A model generated the notes under the pieces. The model was not told the origin of the DNA. It did not search any database and saw only the letters and a program-made list of their open reading frames with translations. From Escherichia phage VEcB: a stretch of 64,000 nt of DNA. Below, one piece after another: positions 4,626-62,945 of this stretch. Both the position numbers and the translations under genes were made by a program. The stretch lies in the sequence record NC_052663.1; one strand, 5' to 3'. Numbering within the stretch: the stretch's first letter is position 1; each line of letters opens with the position of its first letter.

Positions 4626-4629
4626 TTAA

Positions 4630-4652
4630 AAAGGGGCGAAAGCCCCTTTATA
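4630..4652 (+). terminator. Rho-independent terminator after the tailspike gene
   Basis: GGGGC-GAAA-GCCCC hairpin then TTTA-rich tail. Confidence 0.5.
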
Positions 4653-4666
4653 AAAGGAGTAGTAAA

Positions 4667-9769: not shown

Positions 9770-10717
9770 TTAGAAACAGTGCAGGAAGTTTCGACCATAC
9801 TGCAAACCAATAGGAGCAAATGGGATATCATCATCGAAATCTTGAACAACAGGTTCTGGTTCTTTCGGTGCTGGCTCTTTCTTCTCTACTTTTTTAGTTT
9901 CTTTCTTAACTTCTTGTACTGGGGTAGACATTCCACGGATAGCAGCAGCTACTTTATCAGACAAAGCAAGAACTTCACGAGCAGCTTCAATAATCTCTTC
10001 TGCCGTTACAGTTTTACCTGTATGATCACGACAAGCGTTAAGAATTGCGTGTCCAACTGAAGCACCAAGATCATAGTCAGTCACATCAACGCCACGATCT
10101 TTAGCAATTTCTGCTTTCAGAGTAACAGTTGCAGATTGTACCACACCAGCCAAGTCGAAAGCATCACCTTTCACACCAGCACGTAGAAGCTCCAGAGCGC
10201 CATTTACAGCGTGTCCTGTTTCAATCCCTACAGTATCACGTTTTTTGTAGTTAGGTTTGCTACCTTCGTTATTAGATGGCTTATTTCCACCTTTTGAAGA
10301 AGATTGTGCTTGCTGAACACCTTCTGTTGAAAGAACAGTGATTTTACCTTTAGAGGAGTTGTAGTATGTTTTGCCATTCCATTCGGAAGGTTTAACATCC
10401 ATAGTTACTTCTACACCTTTTTCGATAGTAATCCACTTATCACCATCTTTAACTTGCAGGTTTTCATGTTCTGGGTGCAGTTTAACTTCACCTAGGCTAA
10501 CCCAAACACCTTTATCATCAGCACCAGCACCTTTCTCTTTAATAAGCAGAGATGCTTTGTGAGTTGATTCAATTTTCTTATCTGGCTGACCTGCAACCTT
10601 AATATAAGAGACTTTCATTTCATCAAACTTATCCAGTTTGACATATTCAACGATACCTTCAGCCCAGAATGCTTCTTTTTTAGTACGACGGTCGATTTCA
10701 GAATTAATTACTGGCAT
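9770..10717 (-). CDS. Putative ssDNA-binding / recombination-associated protein carrying an SSB C-terminal-tip-like motif (DFDDDIPF)
   Basis: GAGGAG RBS; C-terminal region PVVQDFDDDIPF matches the E. coli SSB acidic tip but is followed by 14 more residues. Confidence 0.45.
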   Translation of the reverse strand: MPVINSEIDRRTKKEAFWAEGIVEYVKLDKFDEMKVSYIKVAGQPDKKIESTHKASLLIKEKGAGADDKGVWVSLGEVKLHPEHENLQVKDGDKWITIEKGVEVTMDVKPSEWNGKTYYNSSKGKITVLSTEGVQQAQSSSKGGNKPSNNEGSKPNYKKRDTVGIETGHAVNGALELLRAGVKGDAFDLAGVVQSATVTLKAEIAKDRGVDVTDYDLGASVGHAILNACRDHTGKTVTAEEIIEAAREVLALSDKVAAAIRGMSTPVQEVKKETKKVEKKEPAPKEPEPVVQDFDDDIPFAPIGLQYGRNFLHCF

Positions 10718-28317: not shown

Positions 28318-29283
28318 CTAGTCTTCTTTTTCAGGGAAGATTAAACTTGCAATAACACCCAGCCCAAGAGTACCTAACACAATATACATACTGATCGTCG
28401 GATCAATGTGTGCTGGCAGGAAACTCACTTTTGCGTGCAGAGTTTCTGCAAACGGGTGATACATCAGTTTTACACCCACAAATACCAGGACTACGATAAC
28501 TGCTTTCTCCAGATGAACCAAATACTTCAGTGCAACACTAAGAACAAAGAACAGAGCACGTAAACCTAAGATTGCACAGAGCATCGAAGAGAACACCAGC
28601 AGAGGTTCTTGTGTCACCGCAATTACCGCTGGAACAGAGTCTACTGCAAAGATTACGTCAACCATTTCCATTACAAACACACAAACCAGAGCCGGAGTTG
28701 CTACACGAACACCATTTTTGATTGTGAAGAACTTCTCACCATCCATCTGATCAGATACAGGGAACAGCTTACGAACAATGCGAGTAGCCCAGTGTTTAGA
28801 GTAATCAACTTCTGCATCATTATCCCCAGCGAATACCATTTTAGCCGCACAGAAAAGGATGACAGCACCGAAGAAGATATTAACATACCAGCCCAAACTC
28901 AACAAGTAAGTGCCTACTGCTACAAACACACCTCGGAAGACAATCGCACCTGCAATACCCCAAAGTAGAATTTTGTGCTGCAAGTGTGTGCTTTTAATAC
29001 CAAAACTTGCGAAGACTGCCACAAATACTACTAAGTTATCTACAGAAAGAGATTTCTCCAACACATACCCACTCAAGAACAAGCTCGCAAAATCAGCACC
29101 GTGTTGGAAGTATACAAAACCATAGTAGGCTAATGATACCCCAATCCAGAAAATTGACCAGCCAATTGCAGATTTAAATGAAATTTCTTTGTTTTCTCTG
29201 TGTCCAAAGAAGTCAATACAAATCGACAAGACTAAAATACCCACTAAAACAACCACATCAATAATTGGGAAACCCAGTTGCAT
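28318..29283 (-). CDS. TerC-family integral membrane protein
   Basis: Multiple TM helices; signature YVLEKSLSVDNLVVFV and second repeat DVIFAVDSVPAVIAV typical of TerC/Alx. Confidence 0.75.
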   Translation of the reverse strand: MQLGFPIIDVVVLVGILVLSICIDFFGHRENKEISFKSAIGWSIFWIGVSLAYYGFVYFQHGADFASLFLSGYVLEKSLSVDNLVVFVAVFASFGIKSTHLQHKILLWGIAGAIVFRGVFVAVGTYLLSLGWYVNIFFGAVILFCAAKMVFAGDNDAEVDYSKHWATRIVRKLFPVSDQMDGEKFFTIKNGVRVATPALVCVFVMEMVDVIFAVDSVPAVIAVTQEPLLVFSSMLCAILGLRALFFVLSVALKYLVHLEKAVIVVLVFVGVKLMYHPFAETLHAKVSFLPAHIDPTISMYIVLGTLGLGVIASLIFPEKED

Positions 29284-29360
29284 TCTTTTCTCCTCTTTAA
29301 TGCGGAGGACAATCCTCCGCTCTATGTCTTATACTATAAACTGTTTTTAAAGAAAGTCAA

Positions 29361-52099: not shown

Positions 52100-52330
52100 C
52101 ATTTTTATAAAAAGGACAAAATTATTTAAAGTTTTTACAGATTTTTGGATACAAATTTTGAAAATGAAAAGTTCAAGTTTGGTCAAAATTATTTAAAGTT
52201 TTTGTATGTATTTCTATCCATATTTTGAAAATGAAAACTTCAATTTTTTAAAAATTCCCCAGTTTATTTAAAGTTTTTTTGCCTTTTTCCGTAGAAAAAT
52301 GAAAAATGAAAAGTTCAATTTCGTGTTTTT
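52100..52330. repeat. Three tandem ~65-70-bp direct repeats in an AT-rich non-coding region
   Basis: Each unit carries AAATTATTTAAAGTTTTT and TTTTGAAAATGAAAAGTTCAA; TTTTTATAAAAAGG also occurs twice upstream. Confidence 0.6.
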
Positions 52331-52339
52331 ATAGGTGTG

Positions 52340-52455
52340 CTAATGAGAATCATTTTCGTTTGTAAATGAGAATCATTATCATTTAACTATGTAAGTGATA
52401 ATCATTCTCAGTAAGAGAATGAGAATCATTAGCAAATGAGAATTTTATCATTTAG
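52340..52455. promoter_or_regulatory. Cluster of five 13-bp palindromes AATGAGAATCATT (and variants) resembling the Fur-box core
   Basis: Copies at ~52342, 52365, 52397 (inverted), 52430, 52434; the 52362-52380 copy matches 16/19 positions of GATAATGATAATCATTATC. Confidence 0.5.
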
Positions 52456-53062: not shown

Positions 53063-53248
53063 AAAAGAAATGAAAAAAGATTAAAAAAGGGGTTGACGTT
53101 CCTCACCTGGTAGCGTATTATTCATCTTGTCGAGGGGGGCGAGGCACAACGACAATAAACAAAAGGAGGGCGCAATGTAGGACGGGCAAAGGTGAGGATC
53201 TCCACAATCCACCGTCACAATAACATTACTTATAAAAGGTTGATAACG

Positions 53249-53353: not shown

Positions 53354-53413
53354 TTGACAACGTTTTTTAATCTGATAAGATGTATCACATAGGGCGGGAA
53401 ATGGTTTCCCGCC
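53354..53413 (+). promoter_or_regulatory. Sigma70-type promoter (TTGACA ... TAAGAT) plus conserved leader hairpin GGCGGGAAA-TGG-TTTCCCGCC
   Basis: -35 TTGACA, 16-nt spacer, -10 TAAGAT; perfect 9-bp stem with 3-nt loop starting near the predicted +1. Confidence 0.6.
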
Positions 53414-53435
53414 AAATCAAAGAAAGGGTAATGCA

Positions 53436-53798
53436 ATGAGCAAGCAAATCAATACTATCATGTTAAACCTGGTATCTTTCCGCGACGACGTGAAAAATCT
53501 TCCACGTGATGCAGTGGATGCACGGATCGAAAGCTATCGCTCACAGATCGCAACGCTACCGCTAAAACGTGATCAACATGCCGCTAATATGATGCTTAAT
53601 GCTATGCTTAAAAAGATGATTCAATGTGATCTTACCCTGGCTTATGAATATGCTGGCGATCTCTTTGTAACATATAGCAAGCCCGTACCAGGTATGAGCA
53701 CAACCGAAGAATTGCATGCCTTAAATCTGCGACAAGATGCATGGGATAACATGCGCCGTGTTATGGTATGGGTAGAAAGCGGTAAAATTTACGAATAA
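53436..53798 (+). CDS. Hypothetical early protein
   Basis: ORF track; preceded by sigma70 promoter plus conserved leader hairpin. Confidence 0.5.
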   Translation: MSKQINTIMLNLVSFRDDVKNLPRDAVDARIESYRSQIATLPLKRDQHAANMMLNAMLKKMIQCDLTLAYEYAGDLFVTYSKPVPGMSTTEELHALNLRQDAWDNMRRVMVWVESGKIYE

Positions 53799-53804
53799 AA
53801 ACGG

Positions 53805-53856
53805 TTGACATTGCACTAAAACCTGATAAACTATCTTAAAGCGGGAATAGTTCCCG
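53805..53856 (+). promoter_or_regulatory. Sigma70-type promoter (TTGACA ... TAAACT) plus hairpin variant AGCGGGAA-TA-GTTCCCGCT
   Basis: Same architecture as 53354-53413. Confidence 0.5.
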
Positions 53857-53875
53857 CTTACATAGGATAAAACTT

Positions 53876-54023
53876 TATGAAACAATATGTAATGAGTATT
53901 CACACCAAAAACGGCGCTACTGTTACGACTCCGGCACGGTTTGCACTTGTAAACCGTTGCAAGAGACTAAAACGAGAGCTAAAAAACAACCGTGCAACGG
54001 GCTTTAAACGCTGGGGAGGATAA
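53876..54023 (+). CDS. Candidate mini-ORF region (two overlapping ~43-aa frames, one Cys-rich, one basic); which is translated is unresolved
   Basis: Follows promoter plus hairpin at 53805-53856; weak RBS. Confidence 0.2.
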
Positions 54024-54025
54024 TC

Positions 54026-54286
54026 TTGTTTTTTCTAAAAGTTTTTGATAATGTGATCGCTTTTGAACATGCTACAACGTTCGACCTGGCGAGATACGCT
54101 ATCAGGTTTAAAGATAATGTTTATCCCCGTGCTGGCGGCGGTTACACTATTTTTAATCATCGTAATTCCCAACTAACGGATATAACTAATCCAGATCCGG
54201 GCGTGTATCGCATAGGCTGGCTACCGTCAAAAGACGCGGCAAGCATGTTTAAGGTATGTAAACTACTAACAGAAGAGGCGAACTAA
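54026..54286 (+). CDS. Hypothetical early protein (TTG start)
   Basis: GGGGAGGA RBS 5 nt upstream of TTG. Confidence 0.4.
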   Translation: MFFLKVFDNVIAFEHATTFDLARYAIRFKDNVYPRAGGGYTIFNHRNSQLTDITNPDPGVYRIGWLPSKDAASMFKVCKLLTEEAN

Positions 54287-54287
54287 C

Positions 54288-54842
54288 ATGGGGCGTGAGT
54301 ATGTGATCCAGTCCTGGGTAAAGCATGACGCTAATGATCCGCGCATAATACCAGATGACATGATCGATCACATGGTAGGGTATAGCGGGGAGCAGATAGG
54401 AAATCGAGCGGCAAAGAGCAACGGCAACACAAAGGCGCGATCCGTTCGCCCTGGTTGGCTGGCAAATGGTAACGCTGACATTGCAAGCGCCGCAGATCCA
54501 AGCGATGACGCTAAAAATAATCCCTTATACAGTATTGATCCGGCTTTTAAGGTGTTGGAAGAGTATCCCGCTAAATTAGCCGCACTAGATAAAGCATACG
54601 AAGAAAAACGGGTGGCATGGACGGTATACAACACCGCTAAAATGGTGCTAGATGCAAAATTGATTAAAGCCCAGGAGAAGATCAATAAACTTGTTGCAGT
54701 AGCGCAAGAGGAAGACCAGGACGACCAGGAGGAAGAGGAAGAAATCATGCCTACCCTGGAAGAGGAAGAGATCCAGCCATACATGCCGACGGAAGAGGAA
54801 AAAAGACAAGCCCTAAAAAATTATGAAAATTGTATTGTGTAA
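54288..54842 (+). CDS. Hypothetical early protein with strongly acidic C-terminal tail
   Basis: C-terminal EEDQDDQEEEEEIMPTLEEEEIQ. Confidence 0.45.
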   Translation: MGREYVIQSWVKHDANDPRIIPDDMIDHMVGYSGEQIGNRAAKSNGNTKARSVRPGWLANGNADIASAADPSDDAKNNPLYSIDPAFKVLEEYPAKLAALDKAYEEKRVAWTVYNTAKMVLDAKLIKAQEKINKLVAVAQEEDQDDQEEEEEIMPTLEEEEIQPYMPTEEEKRQALKNYENCIV

Positions 54843-54845
54843 GGC

Positions 54846-54951
54846 TTGACATATGCAAACAAGCCCCGTAATATGTACCACATAAAGCGGGGCAACGCCC
54901 CATAAGGTGAAATAAAAAATCACTTGACACCTGAAATCAGTAAGCTATAAT
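54846..54951 (+). promoter_or_regulatory. Tandem promoters: TTGACA-N17-TAATAT with hairpin variant (GCGGGGC-AAC-GCCCC), then consensus TTGACA-N16-TATAAT
   Basis: Two consensus -35 hexamers 78 bp apart, both upstream of the 59-aa ORF at 54989. Confidence 0.55.
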
Positions 54952-54988
54952 GCTTATATAGATTGAAACATTACTAAGGAATAAAAGC

Positions 54989-55168
54989 ATGGCTATTATT
55001 GCAAAGACTGAGATCGTAGGTTTAGATTCTATCATCCTGGCATATGAGGAAGCTATAGAAATGTATGTGGTTTCCTATGGTGATTATATCCGTGAATATA
55101 AATCTATTGATCTAGCTTTTGAATGCTATATTCGCCAGGTCAATAAAGCCTATGATGATTATCGTTAA
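54989..55168 (+). CDS. Small early protein (59 aa), not in the ORF track
   Basis: ATG with AAGGA RBS; tandem promoters upstream. Confidence 0.4.
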   Translation: MAIIAKTEIVGLDSIILAYEEAIEMYVVSYGDYIREYKSIDLAFECYIRQVNKAYDDYR

Positions 55169-55187
55169 AAGTTTTAGTCTTGTGCTA

Positions 55188-55216
55188 TTGACAACGAACG
55201 ATAGTACAAGCATAAT
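55188..55216 (+). promoter_or_regulatory. Sigma70-type promoter (TTGACA-N17-CATAAT)
   Basis: Consensus -35; upstream of 55264..55629. Confidence 0.5.
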
Positions 55217-55263
55217 AACTTTTATCGGGAATACTCCTAACTAATCAAAAGAGATTAAAGACT

Positions 55264-55629
55264 ATGGCTAAAAATATCAATGTTTCTGCTTATGCTACCC
55301 TGGCTAACACTGCTAAAATTGAACTATCCAGCATTGAAGCGGTACATATTAGCGCCCGTCGCTGGTTTCAAAAGTCTTATGGTAACACTTATTTCTCTTT
55401 GATGGTTGACGTTGAGATCGGCGGTAAACTGATTGAAGTCGTTAACGTTCCGTTTCAATATGGCTACGGGGATCATTTTGATACCGTTGCCCTAGAAGAG
55501 TTTAGCAAGGTTATCAACCTGGAAGGTAAAGAATTTTCAAATTATGCCTACCTTTCCCGTTTTTGCCGTGACAATGGGATCACTGTATACAGTCATGCAA
55601 GCGATGTTAAACGTAAAAAAGATTTATAA
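55264..55629 (+). CDS. Hypothetical early protein
   Basis: ORF track; own promoter (TTGACA ... CATAAT). Confidence 0.45.
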   Translation: MAKNINVSAYATLANTAKIELSSIEAVHISARRWFQKSYGNTYFSLMVDVEIGGKLIEVVNVPFQYGYGDHFDTVALEEFSKVINLEGKEFSNYAYLSRFCRDNGITVYSHASDVKRKKDL

Positions 55630-55635
55630 AAAGCA

Positions 55636-55696
55636 TTGACAGCACGAATAAAAAGCATATAATACTTATATCGAGAGCGGGAATAGTTCCCGCCTC
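55636..55696 (+). promoter_or_regulatory. Consensus sigma70 promoter (TTGACA-N16-TATAAT) plus hairpin GAGCGGGAA-TA-GTTCCCGCCTC
   Basis: Perfect -35 and -10 hexamers; hairpin near +1. Confidence 0.6.
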
Positions 55697-55717
55697 ACTG
55701 AAAAAGAGATTAACATC

Positions 55718-55957
55718 ATGGCTAAATCTAAAATGTTCTTAGGTCACAAAAACAAAACTCATTGGAATGTAAGCCTTTGGATCAACAACGATGAAGGTTT
55801 TTATAATCTTGCGCGTGAATTTATCGCAGCTAACACCAATAAGAATGACGCAGCGCGTGATATGATGTTATTTCTTGAAAGTATGGATCAAGATAAAACG
55901 CCAGACGGTTACAAGTTCAGTAAAACCGCGATCCGTGCCGCTATGGTTGGAATGTAA
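55718..55957 (+). CDS. Hypothetical early protein
   Basis: ORF track; promoter TTGACA-N16-TATAAT plus hairpin upstream. Confidence 0.45.
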   Translation: MAKSKMFLGHKNKTHWNVSLWINNDEGFYNLAREFIAANTNKNDAARDMMLFLESMDQDKTPDGYKFSKTAIRAAMVGM

Positions 55958-56052
55958 AGGAGACATAAAAATGAAACATCGTTCGACCTATCTCACAAAA
56001 CGTTTTAGCTTAGATCATAAATTGGGCTATTACGGAAGAAATAGAAAATAAT

Positions 56053-56112
56053 TTGACAACGTTTTAAATTAGTGTAAGATATATCACATAGGGCGGGAAA
56101 TGGTTTCCCGCC
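56053..56112 (+). promoter_or_regulatory. Sigma70-type promoter plus canonical leader hairpin; near-identical copy of the 53354-53430 element
   Basis: About 45 bp (ATCACATAGGGCGGGAAATGGTTTCCCGCCAAATCAAAGAAAGG) identical to the leader of 53436..53798. Confidence 0.6.
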
Positions 56113-56134
56113 AAATCAAAGAAAGGTTATCATT

Positions 56135-56362
56135 ATGGCTATCGTTATTGTTCGCGTATCCGGTACGGTTGGAATCTCTCAGGTAGTAGCAGTTATCACA
56201 GAGAAGAAAGGGGATGATCTTCACTCCTCCTTGAATAGCTGGGCGGTCGCTAACTTTGGGCAATGGTCGAGCGTTGAGTACATCGAAGCCTACCAGGTGC
56301 CGACGATTAGCCTAACCGATCTAAATGTTGATCGCTTGTTGTGCCTGGATGGATTAAACTAA
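56135..56362 (+). CDS. Hypothetical early protein
   Basis: ORF track; promoter/leader nearly identical to that of 53436..53798. Confidence 0.45.
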   Translation: MAIVIVRVSGTVGISQVVAVITEKKGDDLHSSLNSWAVANFGQWSSVEYIEAYQVPTISLTDLNVDRLLCLDGLN

Positions 56363-56370
56363 AAATAATC

Positions 56371-56427
56371 TTGACAAGATAACTAAAATCAGTAAAATGT
56401 AATGCATAGGGCGGCAATAGTGCCGCT
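56371..56427 (+). promoter_or_regulatory. Sigma70-type promoter (TTGACA-N16-TAAAAT) plus hairpin GGGCGGCA-ATA-GTGCCGCTC
   Basis: Same architecture; hairpin variant shared with 60181-60237. Confidence 0.55.
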
Positions 56428-56449
56428 CATAGTAAGAGAGATTATCAAA

Positions 56450-56665
56450 ATGGCTAATATCCGCACACTGTTAAAAAATGCAAGTCAAGTTTTATTTTCA
56501 GATGACGAGTATTTCAACAAAGACATTACAGGCGTGAAAAATTTAAAAGACGTGAAGGATGTTATCGGTATCCGTGGATCTTTACGTAAAGGTGACATAT
56601 ACGGTAACAAGGTGCAATATAAACTGTCAAAAGATTATGATTTTACTTTGACATTTATTTCATAA
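56450..56665 (+). CDS. Hypothetical early protein (start at internal ATG after the leader hairpin)
   Basis: Track ORF N-terminus is the translated hairpin; ATG with AGAGAG RBS. Confidence 0.45.
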   Translation: MANIRTLLKNASQVLFSDDEYFNKDITGVKNLKDVKDVIGIRGSLRKGDIYGNKVQYKLSKDYDFTLTFIS

Positions 56666-56671
56666 AACCGC

Positions 56672-56732
56672 TTGCAATACTGCAAAAATAAAGTAAACTG
56701 TATTCATCAAGGCGGTGGAATAGCTCACCGCC
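56672..56732 (+). promoter_or_regulatory. Sigma70-type promoter (TTGCAA-N16-TAAACT) plus hairpin GGCGGTG-GAATAGCT-CACCGCC
   Basis: Same architecture with a divergent loop. Confidence 0.5.
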
Positions 56733-56756
56733 TAACAAAGAGAAGAGGAAAACATC

Positions 56757-56927
56757 ATGATCACTTTCGCCACCCGTGAAGCCGCTCGCAACGTTGCACG
56801 TAAAGTTAATGCCGCCAACCTGGGCGCTACGCTTAAAGCCCCGGTAAAAGATGAATCAGGAAAATGGATCTTCCCTGGTCTGCGTCACGCTGATAAGCTG
56901 GGAACATTAACGTTAAAAAATAAATAA
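56757..56927 (+). CDS. Small early protein (56 aa), not in the ORF track
   Basis: ATG with AAGAGGAAAA RBS; promoter plus hairpin upstream. Confidence 0.4.
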   Translation: MITFATREAARNVARKVNAANLGATLKAPVKDESGKWIFPGLRHADKLGTLTLKNK

Positions 56928-56934
56928 TATCCGC

Positions 56935-56993
56935 TTGACAGTAGCATGATTTATAAGTAAAGTAACAACAACGGCGGGAAATGGTTTCCCGCC
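56935..56993 (+). promoter_or_regulatory. Sigma70-type promoter (TTGACA-N17-TAAAGT) plus canonical hairpin GGCGGGAAA-TGG-TTTCCCGCC
   Basis: Canonical hairpin identical to the 53392 and 61294 copies. Confidence 0.55.
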
Positions 56994-57013
56994 ATCAATA
57001 AAGAGATAAGATT

Positions 57014-57373
57014 ATGAAATCAGCAAAAGCAATTAAAACTTACATTGTGTCGGCTATTTCTTTTGAAGGTACTACAACAGAAAAAGAAAAGATCACCGAA
57101 CTGATGCGCCGTTTTAACTCTGAATACTGGTATCCCGATAATCAAAAACGTTACAATTATAACGTGATCAAGGCGATAGCCTCATGGTTACAAGGTTTAC
57201 CGTCAGACATTAACATCGCCTTTGATTATAACGAGATTGATCATTTATTAATTGAATGGAAGTACATAAAAGAAACAAGCAAAGAAACAACCGTTACCCG
57301 TGAGCGGGAAAATTATTGGTTATATATTGCAAGCATGATCGTAATCCTGGCAAAACAGCATAACGTGGCGTAA
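57014..57373 (+). CDS. Hypothetical early protein
   Basis: ORF track; promoter plus canonical hairpin upstream. Confidence 0.45.
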   Translation: MKSAKAIKTYIVSAISFEGTTTEKEKITELMRRFNSEYWYPDNQKRYNYNVIKAIASWLQGLPSDINIAFDYNEIDHLLIEWKYIKETSKETTVTRERENYWLYIASMIVILAKQHNVA

Positions 57374-57388
57374 TTAAGAGGAAGAAAC

Positions 57389-57526
57389 ATGAACGCATCA
57401 CAGCAGATCGAAAAATTCAACCGCAGCAAGGCGCGTAAAGATTGGAACGAAGAGATCACCAAAAAAGGCGACAAGCGGAACAAAACAAAAAGAGATCGCA
57501 GCACAAAAAGATACTGGAACGAATAA
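57389..57526 (+). CDS. Small highly basic protein (45 aa), not in the ORF track
   Basis: ATG with AAGAGGAAG RBS; K/R-rich; immediately followed by a rho-independent terminator. Confidence 0.4.
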   Translation: MNASQQIEKFNRSKARKDWNEEITKKGDKRNKTKRDRSTKRYWNE

Positions 57527-57530
57527 CAAA

Positions 57531-57556
57531 AAAGGGCGCAATAAGCGCCCTTTTAG
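57531..57556 (+). terminator. Rho-independent terminator
   Basis: GGGCGC-AATAA-GCGCCC followed by TTTT. Confidence 0.6.
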
Positions 57557-57644
57557 CTTATATAGAGGCTTGTTACCCATAGGCAATGGTAACGCCAGGA
57601 TAAGCCTATAAACCACGTTAGACAGCTTTACAGGAGCTTTAAAA

Positions 57645-57827
57645 ATGAAATTAGACGAAATAAGCAAGGCACTAGCCCAGGGGCAAAGGTTATGCGCCCG
57701 ATATCGTGATCAATATGGCTTCATAACCAGCGGCGTGATCCTGGGGATTGAAGGCAATAAGATTTTTATTGACACGTTGAAAAACGTTGTATATAGTGAC
57801 AATATAATCTCAATAAAACATATATGA
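57645..57827 (+). CDS. Hypothetical small protein
   Basis: ORF track. Confidence 0.4.
   Translation: MKLDEISKALAQGQRLCARYRDQYGFITSGVILGIEGNKIFIDTLKNVVYSDNIISIKHI
57769..57797 (+). promoter_or_regulatory. Sigma70-type promoter (TTGACA-N17-TATAGT) embedded in the 3' end of ORF 57645..57827
   Basis: Consensus hexamers; drives the signal-peptide gene at 57836. Confidence 0.45.
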
Positions 57828-57835
57828 GGCAAGAA

Positions 57836-58237
57836 ATGAAAAAATTATTGATCGCTGGTTTAATCTCTTTTGGCATGGTTGGAACATCTAGCGCGGCGAT
57901 ATCCTCCACAGTAGCAGAATTAAGCGCCGTTGATGCAATGGAAAACGTCATGCTTATTAATAATGCGATCCCCGATGAAATCATGGAGGATTCACACATG
58001 ATCGCTTATGGTGCTGTTACACAACTAACGGCAAAAATAGATAAATCTATTGTTAACGGCTTAAATGAAGATGTGCCATGTGAAATTATTACCAGTGTGC
58101 TGACTACTCAAAATTTTACGCCGTGGTTAAAAAGTATTCAAAAAGTACACAGTACAGCCGCAGATCGTAGTAATGAAAAACTAGTGTCAGCACTTGCAAC
58201 GTATACCCTAGCAAAATGCACCGAGATAAAAGATTGA
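57836..58237 (+). CDS. Predicted secreted/periplasmic protein
   Basis: Signal peptide MKKLLIAGLISFGMVGTSSA; promoter TTGACA-N17-TATAGT inside the 3' end of the upstream ORF. Confidence 0.45.
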   Translation: MKKLLIAGLISFGMVGTSSAAISSTVAELSAVDAMENVMLINNAIPDEIMEDSHMIAYGAVTQLTAKIDKSIVNGLNEDVPCEIITSVLTTQNFTPWLKSIQKVHSTAADRSNEKLVSALATYTLAKCTEIKD

Positions 58238-58262
58238 CAACATAGAAAGCACGTTATAAGAT
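58234..58262 (+). promoter_or_regulatory. Sigma70-type promoter (TTGACA-N17-TAAGAT), no hairpin
   Basis: Consensus -35; upstream of 58285..58587. Confidence 0.5.
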
Positions 58263-58284
58263 ACACACAACAAAGGAGAACTAC

Positions 58285-58587
58285 ATGAACGGCATAGCTA
58301 AAACGTTTTTTCTTTTTTCTGGTGTAAATGATCCATCAATAAAAGTCGATAGTGTAAAAGAAAACAATACTATCACCGCTAAATTGTTTCAAGATGAAAC
58401 AAATAACGTGCTAATCATTAATCTTAAAGAAATAACGAAAGGTTATTATACTATTGCTTACCATGCAATCTATCATGCTGGTACTAGTGAGGAAGTGCAA
58501 ACAAGCAACAACGAAAGCGCGGCGCTACCTGGTGATCTGGTGCTGGGCGTTATCAGTTTAATTGTCAATGATTTTTTTAAGGAGTAA
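58285..58587 (+). CDS. Hypothetical protein
   Basis: ORF track; promoter TTGACA ... TAAGAT upstream; RBS AAAGGAG. Confidence 0.45.
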   Translation: MNGIAKTFFLFSGVNDPSIKVDSVKENNTITAKLFQDETNNVLIINLKEITKGYYTIAYHAIYHAGTSEEVQTSNNESAALPGDLVLGVISLIVNDFFKE

Positions 58588-58591
58588 AACC

Positions 58592-58687
58592 ATGCCCTAT
58601 TTACATTTATTTTTCGGGATCTTATTGTCAGGATCTTTTTTCTTCTGTATACTTGTTTCTATTGTAAACCACGTTTTAAGACATTAA
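58592..58687 (+). CDS. Small hydrophobic peptide (31 aa), not in the ORF track
   Basis: ATG 4 nt after the upstream stop; RBS AAGGAG embedded in the upstream gene end. Confidence 0.3.
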   Translation: MPYLHLFFGILLSGSFFFCILVSIVNHVLRH

Positions 58688-58696
58688 GGAAACAAC

Positions 58697-58816
58697 ATGA
58701 AAATTATTCCCGTACAGTATAGCGTAATAAATCCAGCATATGAGGAAGGAAGGAAAACAAGCATGGTTTTATGTTATATTGCTACTATAGCCATGTTGTT
58801 ATATATTGTGTTTTAA
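58697..58816 (+). CDS. Small peptide with C-terminal hydrophobic helix (39 aa), not in the ORF track
   Basis: ATG with AAGGAAAC RBS. Confidence 0.3.
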   Translation: MKIIPVQYSVINPAYEEGRKTSMVLCYIATIAMLLYIVF

Positions 58817-58845
58817 TAGGTTTTATAGTTGTACGCTTTAAAGGC

Positions 58846-58880
58846 TTGACAATTTTTTGTTATGCTTTAAACTATATCTT
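58846..58880 (+). promoter_or_regulatory. Sigma70-type promoter (TTGACA ... TAAACT)
   Basis: Consensus -35; upstream of 58917..59240. Confidence 0.45.
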
Positions 58881-58916
58881 GAAAACGGCAAAGGCCGCAA
58901 ACAAAAGGGTAAAATT

Positions 58917-59240
58917 ATGAAATCTGTGATCGGTGTTTATTTGGATAACTCTGATTTTTTCTATCATCGCGCTCGTTTCCTTGATGCGATTGAAATGATA
59001 GAATCAGGCTTTAAAGAGTATCGCCTTGCACATGATGACCTGGAAGCATTACAGGGCAATAGTGTTTTTACATTGCAAGCTAAAGCACTATGCAAAAGCC
59101 GAATCGACATTGCGAGCAAAAAGATAGAACGCGGCATGTCCTGGTTGCGCACCGCAGAAATCAACATGGGGCAATGGTACGGCGAAAACTTAGAAAATAA
59201 ACATGCTTTTGTCAATGTAGAAAATATTGAAGATTATTGA
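58917..59240 (+). CDS. Hypothetical early protein (start at internal ATG)
   Basis: Promoter TTGACA at ~58846; RBS AAAGGGTAAAA. Confidence 0.45.
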   Translation: MKSVIGVYLDNSDFFYHRARFLDAIEMIESGFKEYRLAHDDLEALQGNSVFTLQAKALCKSRIDIASKKIERGMSWLRTAEINMGQWYGENLENKHAFVNVENIEDY

Positions 59241-59302
59241 TTGACAGCACACTGAACGGGTAGTATATTGTATCTCATAGAGCGGGGAAATGGTTTCCCC
59301 GC
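59241..59302 (+). promoter_or_regulatory. Sigma70-type promoter (TTGACA-N17-TATATT) plus hairpin GCGGGGAAA-TGG-TTTCCCCGC
   Basis: Same architecture. Confidence 0.55.
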
Positions 59303-59322
59303 CTTAAAAGAAGAGATAAGCT

Positions 59323-59607
59323 ATGAAGATCACAAAAGCACTTTCCAACTATGCAGCACGTCGCGGCTTATGTTTAACCGTTGAAAACCTGGGGAAAGAA
59401 GATTTTTTGTGCTTTTGGGAGCTTGAGAATGATAATGAGTGGATCTTCTCTTATTCTATCTGCGAAGATCAAAACGGTTGTTTATTAACCTGGCGCGGTA
59501 ATATCTATCTACCGGAAGAAATCAAAGAAGAATTGCCAGGCACGATCATGACTGAGAAACAGCTTAAGGAAGTGATTAATTTTGTAGGGCAAAACATTAA
59601 AAAATAA
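59323..59607 (+). CDS. Hypothetical early protein
   Basis: ORF track; promoter plus hairpin upstream. Confidence 0.45.
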   Translation: MKITKALSNYAARRGLCLTVENLGKEDFLCFWELENDNEWIFSYSICEDQNGCLLTWRGNIYLPEEIKEELPGTIMTEKQLKEVINFVGQNIKK

Positions 59608-59608
59608 T

Positions 59609-59668
59609 TTGACACTAGGCAAACAACGTAGTAAAGTTTATCACATAGGGCGGGAAATGGTTTCCCGC
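59609..59668 (+). promoter_or_regulatory. Sigma70-type promoter (TTGACA-N17-TAAAGT) plus hairpin GGGCGGGAAA-TGG-TTTCCCGC
   Basis: Same architecture. Confidence 0.55.
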
Positions 59669-59691
59669 TCACAACAGAAGAGAAACACATC

Positions 59692-59862
59692 ATGATCCCG
59701 ACTATGTTTTACGTATCGCGCAAAGGTCACAATATTTTTTGGTCTGAAGATTTAAATGAAGCCATGACGTTTGCCCGTGATCGTGTTGCTATCGGTGGCG
59801 TTAACATTACTGTAACCGATGAAAACGGCATTGAATACTATAACGGCGACGATGAAGAGTAA
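59692..59862 (+). CDS. Small early protein (56 aa), not in the ORF track
   Basis: ATG with AGAAGAGAAA RBS after promoter plus hairpin. Confidence 0.4.
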   Translation: MIPTMFYVSRKGHNIFWSEDLNEAMTFARDRVAIGGVNITVTDENGIEYYNGDDEE

Positions 59863-59869
59863 TTAATAA

Positions 59870-59890
59870 GGCGGGGGAGTATTCCCCGCC
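59870..59890 (+). promoter_or_regulatory. Leader-type hairpin (GGCGGGGGA-GTA-TTCCCCGCC) without an adjacent consensus promoter
   Basis: Occurs between a stop codon and the RBS of 59910..60179. Confidence 0.4.
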
Positions 59891-59909
59891 GTCAATAAAG
59901 AGGTAAATC

Positions 59910-60179
59910 ATGAAAATATCTTTGGACGTTGCAATCAAGGCCATCGAATCCGGTTACACCCTGGTTAAAGATGATAAGGCTAAAACCGTGCACCACGTTA
60001 ACAAGGAAACAGGCGAAAGCATGATCACATATAAAGCCGCCTACTTTCTCCAATCAGTAGCAGATCCGCGCGTACAACGCCAGGTTACGGCGGCTATTGC
60101 TAAAAAATTATGTGCTTTACAGGGTATAAGTTTTAACGAGATCGCCCCGTGTTTTGACTGGTCGAGCTTGAAAAAATAG
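59910..60179 (+). CDS. Hypothetical early protein
   Basis: ORF track; preceded by a leader-type hairpin without an obvious promoter. Confidence 0.45.
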   Translation: MKISLDVAIKAIESGYTLVKDDKAKTVHHVNKETGESMITYKAAYFLQSVADPRVQRQVTAAIAKKLCALQGISFNEIAPCFDWSSLKK

Positions 60180-60180
60180 T

Positions 60181-60237
60181 TTGACAACAATTATAAATCG
60201 GGTAGAATGTATTTCGTAGGGCGGCAATAGTGCCGCT
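60181..60237 (+). promoter_or_regulatory. Sigma70-type promoter (TTGACA-N16-TAGAAT) plus hairpin GGGCGGCA-ATA-GTGCCGCTC
   Basis: Hairpin identical to the 56408-56427 copy. Confidence 0.55.
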
Positions 60238-60259
60238 CATAACTAAAAGAGAAATCAGC

Positions 60260-60454
60260 ATGGCGCTTAAAAAACTAACAAGCAATACTCGTTGGGATGA
60301 AATCGACGGAGAAGTTTACATTTTCGCCCGTAAACCAGGTGATCAAAAATGGTCAAAGGCTTTTACTTGCCACCCTGCAACAATAGATCTAATAAAAAGT
60401 AAAGGTTTACGTGAAGCGGTAGCAAGAAGTTTACTGATCCCTTATAAAAAATAG
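60260..60454 (+). CDS. Hypothetical small protein (start at internal ATG)
   Basis: Promoter TTGACA-N16-TAGAAT plus hairpin upstream. Confidence 0.4.
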   Translation: MALKKLTSNTRWDEIDGEVYIFARKPGDQKWSKAFTCHPATIDLIKSKGLREAVARSLLIPYKK

Positions 60455-60455
60455 T

Positions 60456-60517
60456 TTGACAATACGCGGTTATCTGGTAAAGTGTACGACATAGGGCGGG
60501 GCAATAAGGCAACGCCC
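60456..60517 (+). promoter_or_regulatory. Sigma70-type promoter (TTGACA-N16-TAAAGT) plus degenerate GC-rich hairpin
   Basis: Same architecture. Confidence 0.45.
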
Positions 60518-60535
60518 ATTAATGAGGGTAGAATC

Positions 60536-60640
60536 ATGTTAGAGAAAATTTTCACGGTTGTAGTAGTTGGCCTGGCGTTATCGGTTGGATTGGTTGCAAC
60601 TATGGCTAACATGATCCTATCTTCCCACGGTATTGGATAA
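60536..60640 (+). CDS. Small hydrophobic peptide (34 aa), not in the ORF track
   Basis: ATG with GAGGG RBS; single TM-like helix. Confidence 0.3.
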   Translation: MLEKIFTVVVVGLALSVGLVATMANMILSSHGIG

Positions 60641-60650
60641 GGTGAATCAA

Positions 60651-60866
60651 ATGATCACGAATAAGACAGGTAAAACAGAATTTTTACGCGGCTTGCAAAT
60701 AGGTAAGCCTGAGATCTGGCATTGCACTAAATCCGCGCATAATGAAATGAAAGATTTTACCGCTACTTTACAACGTGTTAAAATATCTATCACACAGAAA
60801 AAAGCCTTGTTAGTAGTAGAAAACGAGATACCGCAAACCATTATTATTGTCGAGCGTACAGCATGA
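60651..60866 (+). CDS. Hypothetical small protein (start at internal ATG)
   Basis: RBS AAGGTGA. Confidence 0.4.
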   Translation: MITNKTGKTEFLRGLQIGKPEIWHCTKSAHNEMKDFTATLQRVKISITQKKALLVVENEIPQTIIIVERTA

Positions 60867-61249
60867 AAACAGAAATCATTATTGAAATCATCAACGGTTA
60901 TAAAGAAGCCTTTATTTTTGCTGAATCAGCCAGGGATCATGAAGGTAATTTTATTGATAACTTAGACGATTATGATTTTTCAGATCAAGCCCACCAGCGG
61001 ATCATTCATGACGTAGCGGCTTATTGTGATGCCAATGATGCTGCTATCTCTGAGGCAATGAGCGACGGCGCAACAGCAAACCAGATCGGGAATGATTTAC
61101 ATTTTACCCGTAACGGTCACGGCGTAGGCTTTTGGGATCGCCCTGAAATATACACTACTAACACCGCCAACCGCCTAACAAATGCAGCTAAATTAATGCC
61201 ATCGGTGCATGCTTACATTGGTGAAGATAATTTGATTTATATCGAATAA
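60863..61249 (+). CDS. Hypothetical acidic protein
   Basis: ORF track; overlapping stop/start; D/E-rich. Confidence 0.4.
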   Translation: MKTEIIIEIINGYKEAFIFAESARDHEGNFIDNLDDYDFSDQAHQRIIHDVAAYCDANDAAISEAMSDGATANQIGNDLHFTRNGHGVGFWDRPEIYTTNTANRLTNAAKLMPSVHAYIGEDNLIYIE

Positions 61250-61255
61250 AAAGTA

Positions 61256-61314
61256 TTGACACCGATCCCCAATATGGTATTATTTACCACGTAGGCGGGA
61301 AATGGTTTCCCGCC
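61256..61314 (+). promoter_or_regulatory. Sigma70-type promoter (TTGACA-N16-TATTAT) plus canonical hairpin
   Basis: Canonical GGCGGGAAA-TGG-TTTCCCGCC. Confidence 0.6.
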
Positions 61315-61337
61315 AGGTAATCAAAAAGGTAAATACT

Positions 61338-61727
61338 ATGCGCAACCTGGTTTCTGTTTCTAACGTTGAAAAATTTCAATCTTTACAGGGTATCGTTAAC
61401 AACGTAGCGCCTTTTTTAGTCAACGGCTTGATTGCAAAGATGAAAAATAAACATCATGCGGCATGGTCTGCTTACTGCTTTGATAATGATGAAAAAGCGG
61501 CTGAAATGATGTTAAATATGCTGTTAGACAGTGTAGAATCATCTTTACCGGAAAACATCGCAGAAGAGATCACCTATCGTTATAATATGGCGATCACTTA
61601 CCAGGAGGTTGCGCAATTTAATATGATGGACGATGACGAACAACAGGATCAGGAAATGTTTTGGGAGTATGCAGATCGTCAATCGGCTTTTGATGAAAAG
61701 TTAGCAATGTATTATAACGAATATTAA
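61338..61727 (+). CDS. Hypothetical acidic protein (start at internal ATG after the leader hairpin)
   Basis: Promoter TTGACA-N16-TATTAT plus canonical hairpin; acidic tract MMDDDEQQDQEMFWEY; terminator downstream. Confidence 0.45.
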   Translation: MRNLVSVSNVEKFQSLQGIVNNVAPFLVNGLIAKMKNKHHAAWSAYCFDNDEKAAEMMLNMLLDSVESSLPENIAEEITYRYNMAITYQEVAQFNMMDDDEQQDQEMFWEYADRQSAFDEKLAMYYNEY

Positions 61728-61740
61728 TACACGGTAAAAG

Positions 61741-61770
61741 AAAGGGGCGCACTAAGCGCCCTTTTTTTTT
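61741..61770 (+). terminator. Rho-independent terminator
   Basis: GGGGCGC-ACTAA-GCGCCC followed by a T9 run. Confidence 0.7.
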
Positions 61771-62115
61771 GTATTCTTTTTTCACGATGGAAGTAACACG
61801 TAAAGAATAGGCGTAAAGGTGGCGTAAAACAGCCTAAAACCGATTATAACCGCTTAAACAAGGTAGGAATGATTAATCACCTTACCAGGATGAAAAAGCT
61901 GTTATAAAGCTATCTAGGGCGTTTAAAGAACATAGGAAATAATTTGCTTTTTATCTTGCCTTTTATCCTGCTTTTGATTATTATTATGGAACGGGCGGCA
62001 CCTGGGGACAGGGGAAGATAATCACCGGAAGATCCCGCTATATATTGATAGCTAACATCTATCAAACAACAAAACATCAAAGGAATAAACTATCAAATCT
62101 TTACAATCTTATCTA

Positions 62116-62144
62116 TTGACCGATAAATCATAACCGTTTAATAT
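62116..62144 (+). promoter_or_regulatory. Sigma70-type promoter (TTGACC-N17-TAATAT)
   Basis: Near-consensus hexamers upstream of 62193..62429. Confidence 0.45.
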
Positions 62145-62192
62145 TGTTTTTAGAGGGTAGAACATACCCAAAACGAAAACAGGAAAAAGAAA

Positions 62193-62429
62193 ATGAAAGA
62201 AGTCATGATCCTCAAAAAATCACCTATTTTACGTGGTGGCTTTATCGCTTACTCTGATGATCTGTTAATTGCAACGGTTGCAAAAATACTAAAATCAGAA
62301 GAGGATAGTAAAAACGGCGTTTATCGTATCTGTTTCACCCGTGGGAAATTGCAAGGCAAGATCGCCTATGCTTTTGATTTACAAGATGTAAATGATAAAA
62401 TCTGCGCTGTTATTGATTATGCAAAATAA
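62193..62429 (+). CDS. Hypothetical small protein
   Basis: Promoter TTGACC-N17-TAATAT upstream. Confidence 0.4.
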   Translation: MKEVMILKKSPILRGGFIAYSDDLLIATVAKILKSEEDSKNGVYRICFTRGKLQGKIAYAFDLQDVNDKICAVIDYAK

Positions 62430-62441
62430 TTAACTTTCTTA

Positions 62442-62470
62442 TTGACACCGGATCACGCTTACATTATTAT
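62442..62470 (+). promoter_or_regulatory. Sigma70-type promoter (TTGACA-N17-TATTAT) with degenerate leader (CACGTAGGGCAAATCATTTT)
   Basis: Consensus -35; leader keeps the CAC-TAGGGC start but lost the stem. Confidence 0.5.
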
Positions 62471-62516
62471 TTATCACGTAGGGCAAATCATTTTAAACGG
62501 TAAACGAGGAATCACC

Positions 62517-62900
62517 ATGAGCAATATCATCAACCTGGCGGCTACTGTAAACGGTAAAGACTTTAACGGCGCTGTAGATCGTGATCCTATGTGGTGCTTG
62601 TCAGTATTTAAAGGTGATTTAGTTGAAGTTAGAACAACCGAAGGGTATAGCGATGATTATAAATGCGAGATCCATTTACATAACTGGTACACGGGTAAAA
62701 CTTATGCGCTGAATCACGCGTTTATCGGGAAAATTGAATATCGTGAGATGATCGACGAAGAAACGGGGCAAGATTTTAGCCAGCATGTTTATATTCGTTC
62801 CGAAACATTAGCCGAACGTTTGATCGAGAAAATGAAAGCAAAAAATAAAATTAATTTATCTCATTGGATTGATATAACAAACGATCCTGCTTATCAGTAA
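62517..62900 (+). CDS. Hypothetical protein (start at internal ATG)
   Basis: Promoter TTGACA-N17-TATTAT upstream; terminator downstream. Confidence 0.45.
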   Translation: MSNIINLAATVNGKDFNGAVDRDPMWCLSVFKGDLVEVRTTEGYSDDYKCEIHLHNWYTGKTYALNHAFIGKIEYREMIDEETGQDFSQHVYIRSETLAERLIEKMKAKNKINLSHWIDITNDPAYQ

Positions 62901-62912
62901 ATAACATTTCAT

Positions 62913-62945
62913 ACCAGGGCGCACAAAGCGCCCTTTCTTTTTACC
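62913..62945 (+). terminator. Rho-independent terminator closing the small-gene array
   Basis: AGGGCGC-ACAAA-GCGCCCT followed by TTCTTTTT. Confidence 0.6.

Follow-up and report, generated by a model that had tools for sequence, protein, structure and literature searches.

Why should two small genes that bear no resemblance to each other be preceded by almost the same promoter and leader? The question is raised by the early region of Escherichia phage VEcB (sequence record NC_052663.1), of which we analyzed a stretch of 64,000 nucleotides (nt), hereafter called the window. The 44-mer ATCACATAGGGCGGGAAATGGTTTCCCGCCAAATCAAAGAAAGG was present exactly twice in the window, at 53384-53427 and 56083-56126, and the 77-nt units that contain it (53354-53430 and 56053-56129, units 1 and 5 in the numbering used below) were 88% identical, with the differences confined to the promoter spacer. 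The identity begins at the -35 hexamer and ends at the Shine-Dalgarno (SD) sequence, where AAAGG is followed by GTAATGCAATG in unit 1 and by TTATCATTATG in unit 5, and the flanks of the two units are unrelated on both sides. The 120-amino-acid (aa) and 75-aa proteins encoded 3′ of the units showed no similarity (BLASTP E = 9.5) and belong to separate PHROGs, both of unknown function; a Pfam check of the two proteins found no domain in either. These comparisons confirmed the original prediction of a near-identical promoter/leader segment in front of two unrelated genes, and the alignment placed the end of the identity at the SD sequence instead of carrying it through the coding regions. The prediction had treated the segment as a two-copy repeat, which was not upheld: the pair is merely the most similar two members of a family of about 15.

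When 16 units were compared by global alignment, units 1 and 5 were the closest pair (86% identity), the next pair being at 78% and the median at 61%. About 15 units were found in the early region at 53-62.5 kb, compared with 1 in the other 52 kb of the window. They begin with TTGACA, a spacer of 16 to 17 nt, TAnnnT, and a stretch of about 11 nt that has the CAYRTAG box at its end; then come a GC-rich hairpin with a stem of 7 to 9 bp, an SD sequence, and ATG, the distance from hairpin to ATG being 17 to 24 nt. In unit 1 (53354-53435, + strand), the -35 hexamer TTGACA at 53354 and the -10 hexamer TAAGAT at 53376-53381 are followed by a CACATAG box, the hairpin (53393-53413), the SD sequence AAAGGG, and the ATG at 53436. 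In unit 5 (56053-56134, + strand), the -35 hexamer is at 56053 and the -10 hexamer TAAGAT at 56075-56080, followed by the box, the hairpin (56092-56112), the SD sequence, and the ATG at 56135. The units have A/T-rich 5′ flanks, and about 20 of them match the promoter consensus at 10 to 12 of 12 positions; within 52.8-63 kb, the + strand carries 23 promoters with at least 10 of 12 matches. The CAYRTAG box sits around the predicted start site, and the predicted folds range from -12 to -18 kcal/mol overall and from -14 to -18 kcal/mol in the catalogue of units. The units are co-oriented with the small genes and stand in front of most of the small early genes.

The 21-nt hairpin GGCGGGAAATGGTTTCCCGCC occurs at five + strand sites with at most one mismatch, and the number expected from 100 shuffles was 0, which excludes chance. 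Beyond units 1 and 5, it was found at 56973 and 61294, with a one-mismatch copy at 59649, and variant hairpins lie at 53839, 54888, 55677, 56411, 56710, 59282, 59870, 60221, and about 60495. A covariance model of box plus hairpin, seeded on 12 units of equal length, returned 11 matches on the + strand (53384 to 61322) and one on the - strand (29293-29330), with no further match at E < 0.1 anywhere in the 64 kb; units 1 and 5 were the joint top scorers (57.9 bits each). A search of Rfam 15 found no family at the gathering score, and its four sub-threshold hits were chance hits, none of them on the hairpins. All 10 early-region open reading frames (ORFs) tested fell into PHROGs of unknown function. 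The early ORFs at 54989, 55264, 55718, 56135, and 56450 (and 60260), though unrelated, start with ATGGCTA (Met-Ala), which indicates that the conservation of the unit extends into the first codons. The units exist, are numerous, point in the direction of the genes, and carry a structurally conserved hairpin. We consider it highly probable that they form a dispersed family of compact expression cassettes for early genes, that the likeness of units 1 and 5 was made by recombination, that the hairpin belongs to the 5′ end of the RNA, and that cassettes are exchanged at the units.

For the structure of the hairpin, we gathered units from the window and 12 relatives drawn from GenBank phages, and the model-based alignment of 126 hits contained 77 distinct units. 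Alignment of 38 units by MAFFT followed by RNAalifold gave no consensus structure, the 3′ arms being misaligned, and the covariance model was used instead. In 51 of the 77 distinct units, the first paired base lies 11 to 12 nt past the -10 hexamer. The model-based alignment had 97.9% of its cells paired, with compensatory changes on both sides in five of nine pairs (47 cells). The covariation score was 0.248, compared with 0.138 in shuffles (0 of 500), and it collapsed on sliding partners. The stems diverge from each other yet remain complementary (GCGGG/CCCGC, GCGGC/GCCGC, GGCGGTG/CACCGCC, GCGGAGG/CCTCCGC, and GTGGGG/CCCCAC). Internal non-Watson-Crick positions were G·U in 23 cases and A·C in 2, and the RNA fold of the sense strand was the more stable of the two in 61 of the 77 units. 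These results point to a hairpin that would pair in the sense transcript rather than act as a double-stranded operator.

No T-run follows the hairpins on the + strand: units 1 and 5 continue with AAATCAAAG, and others with CTCACAAC and similar sequences. The unit hairpins therefore lack the arrangement of an intrinsic (Rho-independent) terminator, in which the hairpin is directly followed by a T-run on the transcribed strand. Since the T-run is missing and the hairpin would start at about +4 of the predicted transcript, we read it as a 5′-leader RNA hairpin. Canonical terminators with a hairpin and a T-run are present at 57530-57554, 61734-61772, and 62916-62934, and belong to a separate hairpin family. 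All three terminate transcription units of the early array and share one repeated form, GGGCGC-AATAA/ACTAA/ACAAA-GCGCCC plus T-run, so that they make up a small repeat family of their own. In phage JLBYU50, the units at 3905 and 6717 have loops that are inverted with respect to all orthologues (AATAGTT to AACTATT, and CAATAGTG to CACTATTG). The inversions are a signature of template switching at a palindrome, and suggest that the loop sequence is nonessential.

The early region of the window is 97-98% identical to that of Escherichia phages PATM, Eryne, outra, and alia (phi92-like myoviruses; Justusliebigvirus, Stephanstirmvirinae) and corresponds to gp226-gp248 of phi92, small genes of unknown function near the right terminal repeat. 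The 120-aa ORF behind unit 1 (53436-53798, + strand; PHROG 7352) is the homologue of phi92 gp227, and the 75-aa ORF behind unit 5 (56135-56362, + strand; PHROG 13850) is that of gp233. In alia, phi92, Paula, and 92CQ, the locus of unit 1 holds two cassettes (gp226 and gp227): unit A (TTGACAACGTTTTTTAATCTGATAAGATGTATCACATAGGGCGG-CAATAGTGCCGC...) is followed by gp226 (90 aa), and unit B (TTGACACTGAAAAATAATTTGGTAATATATACCACATAAGGCGG-GAAATGGTTTCCCGCC...) by gp227. Unit 1 of the window equals unit A until CACATAGGGCGG and unit B from GAAATGG onward. The matches of the window to alia, Paula, and 92CQ stop at 53400 and restart at 53368 (an overlap of 53368-53400), with the relatives 323-356 bp longer. 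An extra 356 bp is the exact spacing of units A and B, and one cassette, the gp226 homologue, is absent from the window. Unit 1 is thus demonstrably a recombinant in which the gp226 promoter is fused to the gp227 hairpin and leader, and the exchange was unequal and in register, with the crossover inside the GGCGG of the left hairpin arm. Among the top matches listed, which have 94-96% identity and are E. coli phages with few exceptions, every record covered the junction only as two pieces (about 587 versus 231 bp); because it is split in every one of these records, the deletion appears to be specific to the lineage of this phage. A collapse during assembly is an unlikely source of the missing gp226 cassette: where the parental units meet, no more than about 33 of their bases are similar, and the longest uninterrupted identity seen there, about 5 to 6 nt, is too little for it.

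The right half of unit 1 (hairpin plus AAATCAAAGAAAGG) is identical to the gp233 leader and is the allele that 92CQ, JLBYU50, and A110a also carry, whereas AGGCCATCAAAGAAAGG takes the place of AAATCAAAGAAAGG in alia, phi92, and Paula. The gp233 promoter alleles are mosaics of segments of about 10 nt, and promoter A is close to some of them, unit 5 of JLBYU50 being 98.7% identical to unit 1 of the window over 78 nt. The gp227 leader matches the gp233 leader in one sublineage (92CQ, JLBYU50, A110a, and the window), and in the lineage of the window an unequal crossover in the GGCGG left arm then deleted the 356-bp gp226 cassette. The deletion placed the gp226 promoter, a close relative of that of gp233, before gp227. 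The near-identity of units 1 and 5 accordingly reflects homogenization among units plus the deletion of one cassette. Of the duplication or recombination of regulatory cassettes that had been suggested for this locus, recombination is borne out by the chimeric unit 1, whereas crossover and homogenization take the place of a fresh duplication.

We then compared the cassettes of the window with those of the 12 relatives. JLBYU50 and A110a have an extra 77-aa cassette flanked by two copies of unit 4, with a 70-nt overlap of the matches (55622-55691). In the same two phages, the promoter of unit 0 is joined to the gp226 hairpin at GGGG followed by GCAATAG. Phages phi92 and PHB05 lack 54996-55263 (the cassette of a 59-aa ORF), and the junction between 54995 and 55264 lies in the shared ATGGCTA start. 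Phages 92CQ, ukendt, and ZCKP1 lack the cassette of unit 15, with the junction between 62120 and 62440 in both -35 hexamers, and Paula has a different gene or cassette in this slot. The absence of 60240-60445 from 92CQ leaves two promoter-hairpin units in tandem, and JLBYU50 lacks 58920-62692, with the junction at the SD/ATG. In the rV5-like phage PDX, the stop codon of the 59-aa ORF (55170) is joined to 60173, 8 nt before the -35 hexamer of unit 12, and the cassette of unit 12, which is 91% identical to that of PDX, stands there directly 3′ of the 59-aa ORF. The gene order in Phapecoctavirus is different.

Single cassettes are also shared with more distant phages. The cassette of unit 4 and its 79-aa ORF (55636-55957) is about 78-80% identical to sequences of the 350-kb Asteriusvirus jumbo phages, and this homology runs from the -35 hexamer, or at most about 40 nt after it, to the stop codon. 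In SP27 (LC494302, about 1980-5180), the unit layout precedes several small ORFs (TTGCAA-17-TATAAT-GTTTTACATCGAGAGCGGGAACACTTCCCGC). SP27 carries the unit 4 cassette and a gp227 homologue in another order and behind different units; the genome of the window phage is 146 kb. In sum, gp227 stands behind promoter A in the window and ukendt, behind promoter B in alia and phi92, and behind a unit-4-like cassette in SP27. The proposal that early genes are shuffled between phages is supported by these cassette-sized insertions, deletions, and replacements with junctions in units, and by the cassettes held in common with other phage subfamilies. The correspondence of cassette boundaries to the leader element was also found in the related phages, where homology breakpoints lie within units: 34 of 54 distinct homology endpoints fell in unit intervals, which make up 21% of the region (p about 5e-11). 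More telling than this enrichment are the chimeric units and the overlapping matches.

Some units stand directly before the next promoter without an ORF (54846-54988 in the window and about 10443-10560 in 92CQ), and these orphan units look like scars of deleted cassette genes. Unit 3, the orphan of the window (54846-54988, + strand), has a promoter and a hairpin (54888-54903), followed by another consensus promoter (54924, without hairpin) and then the 59-aa ORF. A sub-threshold Rfam match to RT-17 RNA at 54891-54989 (27.4 bits, compared with a gathering score of 40.4; E = 0.089) overlaps this unit and the next promoter and is most likely due to chance. Among the records that match the early region are 19 unannotated "UNVERIFIED Campylobacter phage" records (for example, MG065689, A110a, 146 kb), "Enterococcus phage heks" (MT119359, nt 1-609), and "Pseudomonas phage PsgM04F". 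Their identity to the early region is 89-95%, and the records labeled with these hosts are probably mislabeled or contaminated.

How might such a unit work? Judging from the promoter geometry, host RNA polymerase would start from the sigma-70 promoter about 7 nt past the -10 hexamer, and the hairpin of every early mRNA would form at +3 to +6, with some 3 to 5 nt unpaired at the 5′ end. RNase E and RppH favor accessible, unpaired 5′ ends (review PMC3997798), and the most likely role of the hairpin would be to protect the transcript from 5′-end-dependent decay through these enzymes. It may also keep the ribosome site in a constant context irrespective of the downstream gene; the SD sequence lies 8 to 15 nt past the hairpin, and the hairpin is within 3 to 5 nt of the 5′ end if the predicted start holds. 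Because 30 to 80 nt of similar sequence precede most early genes, the phage recombination or replication machinery could delete, insert, or swap promoter-plus-gene modules without breaking genes. By analogy with the promoter-early stem-loops (PeSLs) of T4-like phages, the units may thus be substrates for the loss, gain, and swapping of cassettes.

Several points weigh against this interpretation. The enrichment of endpoints fits recombination at repeats or the mere survival of intergenic junctions, and it is ambiguous because nearly all intergenic DNA in the region is unit DNA; BLAST alignments, moreover, tend to stop at conserved islands such as the hairpin. Some junctions share only 5 to 14 nt, which indicates microhomology or template switching rather than classical homologous exchange, and the junction between 56981 and 57304 in PHB05 ends within an ORF. 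The start site and the 5′-terminal position of the hairpin are predictions from promoter geometry, and 3 to 5 unpaired 5′ nt are reportedly borderline for protection in work on ompA. Part of the G·U excess may stem from a C-to-T bias of the non-template strand, the units are non-independent (many are orthologues) and their alignment was fitted to the model, and the loop (AAURGUU) is conserved beyond the needs of a role in pure stability.

The hairpin could instead be mainly a terminator or attenuator that insulates each cassette from upstream read-through or, in a variant taken from the Paula record, an opposite-strand terminator. PeSL stem-loops lowered lacZ read-through in RB49 and phi1 (PMC2839356) and were assigned a terminator role in the PeSL papers, hairpins in the Paula record (LR865361) are annotated as "terminator" on the strand opposite the genes, and a simple scan of the window found three terminator-like hairpins on the - strand (59890-59870, 56997-56969, and 54902-54888). 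We nevertheless regard this explanation as unlikely. The hairpin lies downstream of its own predicted start, and an efficient terminator would also abort the transcript of its own gene; the T-run is missing on the + strand, the canonical terminators being of the other family; terminator-like hits in the region are at the level of shuffles (11 compared with 9.1); and an opposite-strand terminator would serve no - strand gene in this region. The 21-bp palindrome might also be a DNA operator: bound by a dimeric protein of the phage or the host just past each early start site, it would silence or switch on the early promoters in concert. In favor of this are the perfect 21-bp symmetry, the constant distance from the -10 hexamer in many promoters, and the good conservation of the central AAURGUU and the adjacent CAYRTAG box. 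A single operator consensus does not predict stems that diverge widely while staying complementary, the stem length and loop size vary, and bulges and G·U pairs are tolerated but A·C pairs are not (23 compared with 2), which argues for RNA pairing of the sense strand; we find an operator quite improbable. The annotation of phAPEC8 (JX561091) leads to yet another proposal, a phage-specific promoter for a modified or phage-encoded polymerase: a "putative promoter determined with PHIRE" is placed exactly on RTAGGGCGGCAATGGTGCCG (20 nt of box and hairpin). However, PHIRE finds only over-represented 20-mers, each PHIRE motif is 10 to 12 nt downstream of a near-consensus sigma-70 promoter that is sufficient by itself, and the sequence covaries as a stem, unlike promoters, and ends about 20 nt before the start codon. 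A promoter of this kind is very improbable, and both the PHIRE promoter annotation of phAPEC8 and the opposite-strand terminators of Paula look mistaken.

The conservation of loop and box beyond what stability needs might be explained if a dedicated factor recognized box plus hairpin as RNA or single-stranded DNA. This factor could be a phage regulator or nuclease with post-transcriptional control of early mRNAs, or the site could, like attC of integrons, serve site-specific recombination that actively mobilizes cassettes. An idea of this type was also raised by the PeSL authors, and two independent left-arm junctions share about 5 nt (the gp226 deletion of the window and 53138 in JLBYU50 and A110a). 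On the other hand, junctions were found at many places in the unit (before and within the -35 hexamer, within the hairpin, and at the SD/ATG or stop codons), which favors general or microhomology recombination or template switching over a site-specific mechanism with one cleavage site, and the loop inversions of JLBYU50 indicate that the loop sequence is dispensable. No recombinase was seen, although no search was aimed at one, and no RNA-binding partner was identified; a dedicated factor is accordingly improbable in our judgment. There is a small chance that the CAYRTAG box and hairpin go beyond passive stabilization and homology and, folded as RNA or single-stranded DNA, are a recognition element in their own right. 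It would be common to three or more groups of large virulent coliphages that are not related to each other (phi92/phAPEC8-like, rV5-like, and the 350-kb Asteriusvirus jumbo phages), and a factor may co-regulate all early transcripts through it or cassettes may be actively exchanged through it. If true, the element would be a common currency for the horizontal transfer of early, possibly anti-defense, genes across phage families. A simple recent duplication, or independent convergence, without a role in gene shuffling would account for an exact 44-mer common to just two sites in the window. Duplication was rejected, the family having about 15 graded members and the orthologous units of the relatives showing unit 1 to be a chimera of two pre-existing units with the gp226 cassette lost between them, and convergence is unable to give 44 identical bases that include non-functional spacer positions; this last explanation is extremely improbable.

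The remaining members of the family in the early region are all on the + strand. Unit 0 (53093-53174) has a TTGACG-17-TATTAT promoter and a degenerate hairpin remnant. Unit 2 (53805-53876) consists of a promoter and a hairpin at 53839-53859 (AAGCGGGAATAGTTCCCGCTT) and is followed by a 48-aa ORF; unit 4 (55636-55717) has a TTGACA-16-TATAAT promoter and a hairpin at 55677-55693 in front of the 79-aa ORF. Unit 6 (56371-56449) contains a promoter and a hairpin at 56411-56426 (GCGGCAATAGTGCCGC), and unit 7 (56672-56756) a TTGCAA promoter and a hairpin at 56710-56733 (AGGCGGTG..CACCGCCT). Units 8 (56935-57013) and 14 (61256-61337) each combine a promoter with the same 21-mer as units 1 and 5, at 56973-56993 and 61294-61314, respectively. 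Promoter and hairpin are likewise present in unit 9 (59241-59322; hairpin at 59282-59302) and unit 12 (60181-60259; hairpin at 60221-60236), and unit 10 (59609-59691) has a promoter, a box, and a hairpin at 59650-59668 whose outer pair is G·U. Unit 11 (59862-59909) is a hairpin (59870-59890) and leader without a promoter of its own. The hairpin of unit 13 (60456-60535) is imperfect and longer (about 60495-60518) and follows a promoter, that of unit 15 (62116-62192) is divergent (GGGTAGAACATACCC) behind a TTGACC promoter, and unit 16 (62442-62516) has a promoter and a ATCACGTAGGGC box without a hairpin.

The sole unit outside the early region (29284-29360, - strand) has a TTGACT-16-TATAGT promoter, a CATAG box, the hairpin GCGGAGGATTGTCCTCCGC, and an SD sequence, and scored 44.9 bits with the covariance model. 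It precedes a gene for a TerC-family membrane protein (28318-29283, - strand; Pfam PF03741, E = 1e-38). This gene and its own unit (29360-28318, - strand) are set among the genes of another module and resemble a moron-type insertion. Within the early array, the 79-aa ORF is separated from unit 5 by an 87-bp insert that follows its stop codon (55958-56044) and was found only in the window, alia, and Paula; it contains a good SD sequence and a 26-aa mini-ORF (MKHRSTYLTKRFSLDHKLGYYGRNRK). Just upstream of the array, 52101-52450 is AT-rich and non-coding; a direct repeat of about 75-79 nt is present there in three copies (71-73% identical), after which short repeats of the GAGAAT(C/G)A type begin. 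The corresponding part of the alia record is annotated with "repeat_region" features, and a "non-coding" box is drawn in the rV5 paper; this stretch may be a replication origin or a regulatory region.

The units resemble the PeSLs described in the T4-like phages RB49/phi1, T4/PST, and KVP40/nt-1 (Arbiol et al. 2010, PMC2839356; Comeau et al. 2014, PMC4122927). Both are multi-copy composites of about 70 to 100 nt with an AT-rich stretch, a strong sigma-70 promoter, a G-rich/C-rich stem-loop, an SD sequence, and an ATG, and both separate small ORFs without known function in an early region that is plastic. In both systems, relatives differ by motif-bounded insertion, deletion, or replacement of ORFs that leaves chimeric motifs, and crossovers have been mapped inside the motif, including the stem-loop. 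The lineages are different, Straboviridae for PeSLs and Stephanstirmvirinae here. In RB49, whose motifs we read directly (GTTGACAGGGGATC..GATCCCCTATAAT), the stem-loop is between -35 and -10 or over -10, upstream of the start, whereas the hairpin here is 11 to 12 nt downstream of -10 and inside the predicted transcript, unlike the commonest RB49 classes. Its place inside the transcript suggests a role at the RNA level rather than, or besides, the termination of upstream transcripts. Arbiol et al. (PMC2839356) also described a minority PeSL class "downstream of the -10", so the position of the hairpin alone does not exclude membership. The hairpin model found no sequence homology to RB49 PeSLs in 35 kb of RB49. 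The formation of excised cassette mini-circles during infection is a further trait of PeSLs. Of the other traits that define PeSLs, the units have the promoter, the adjacent stem-loop, the many copies in a plastic region, and the motif-bounded ORF differences, and they do not have a hairpin within or over the promoter or relatedness to the RB49/phi1 sequences. The units work like PeSLs and fit the published definition, as an independent family with a transcribed hairpin in another lineage.

Three other systems bear comparison. The 5′-terminal stabilizer stem-loops of ompA and papA (Emory, Bouvet & Belasco 1992; Bouvet & Belasco 1992; listed in review PMC3997798) are stable hairpins a few nt from the 5′ end, as predicted here, and lie upstream of the ribosome-binding site without overlapping it. 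In contrast to these, the hairpins here are a sequence-related repeat family before many genes, with a conserved loop and an upstream box. The morons of lambdoid phages (the Hendrix/Juhala concept, discussed in PMC2839356) are, as here, single genes with their own promoter that move between phages. Morons are not thought to move via conserved flanking repeats and usually carry a terminator, whereas the promoter-leader unit here is the likely exchange site. The array of small ORF cassettes next to promoters, with hairpin-forming imperfect palindromes between them, also recalls integrons and their attC sites, a comparison drawn by the PeSL authors themselves (PMC2839356), but each cassette here has its own promoter, and the junctions are scattered with no single crossover point. 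In the literature, which for this purpose did not include the phi92 genome paper, we found no paper that describes the units in phages of the rV5, phi92, or phAPEC8 type; 33 sigma-70 promoters are given in the rV5 paper, which does not mention the hairpin.

The units are thus a real, non-random feature. Systems of this kind have been described before; the phage group is new, and the layout differs slightly. Specialists familiar with the PeSL work will not be surprised by them, and their use lies in annotation and in the mosaicism of early regions. They extend the PeSL idea beyond the T4-like phages in a version with a transcribed hairpin, give a rule for locating cassette boundaries and for correcting inconsistent promoter and terminator annotations in databases, and are a natural library of compact parts that join a strong promoter to a leader. 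Few coliphages are isolated as often as those of the phi92, phAPEC8, and rV5 types, which are also candidates for therapy. No part of their genomes is less well understood or more variable than the early region, with small genes that are probably for host takeover or counter-defense. If the cassette doubles as a recombination substrate, the mosaicism of these regions would be explained, including the cassettes shared with jumbo phages.

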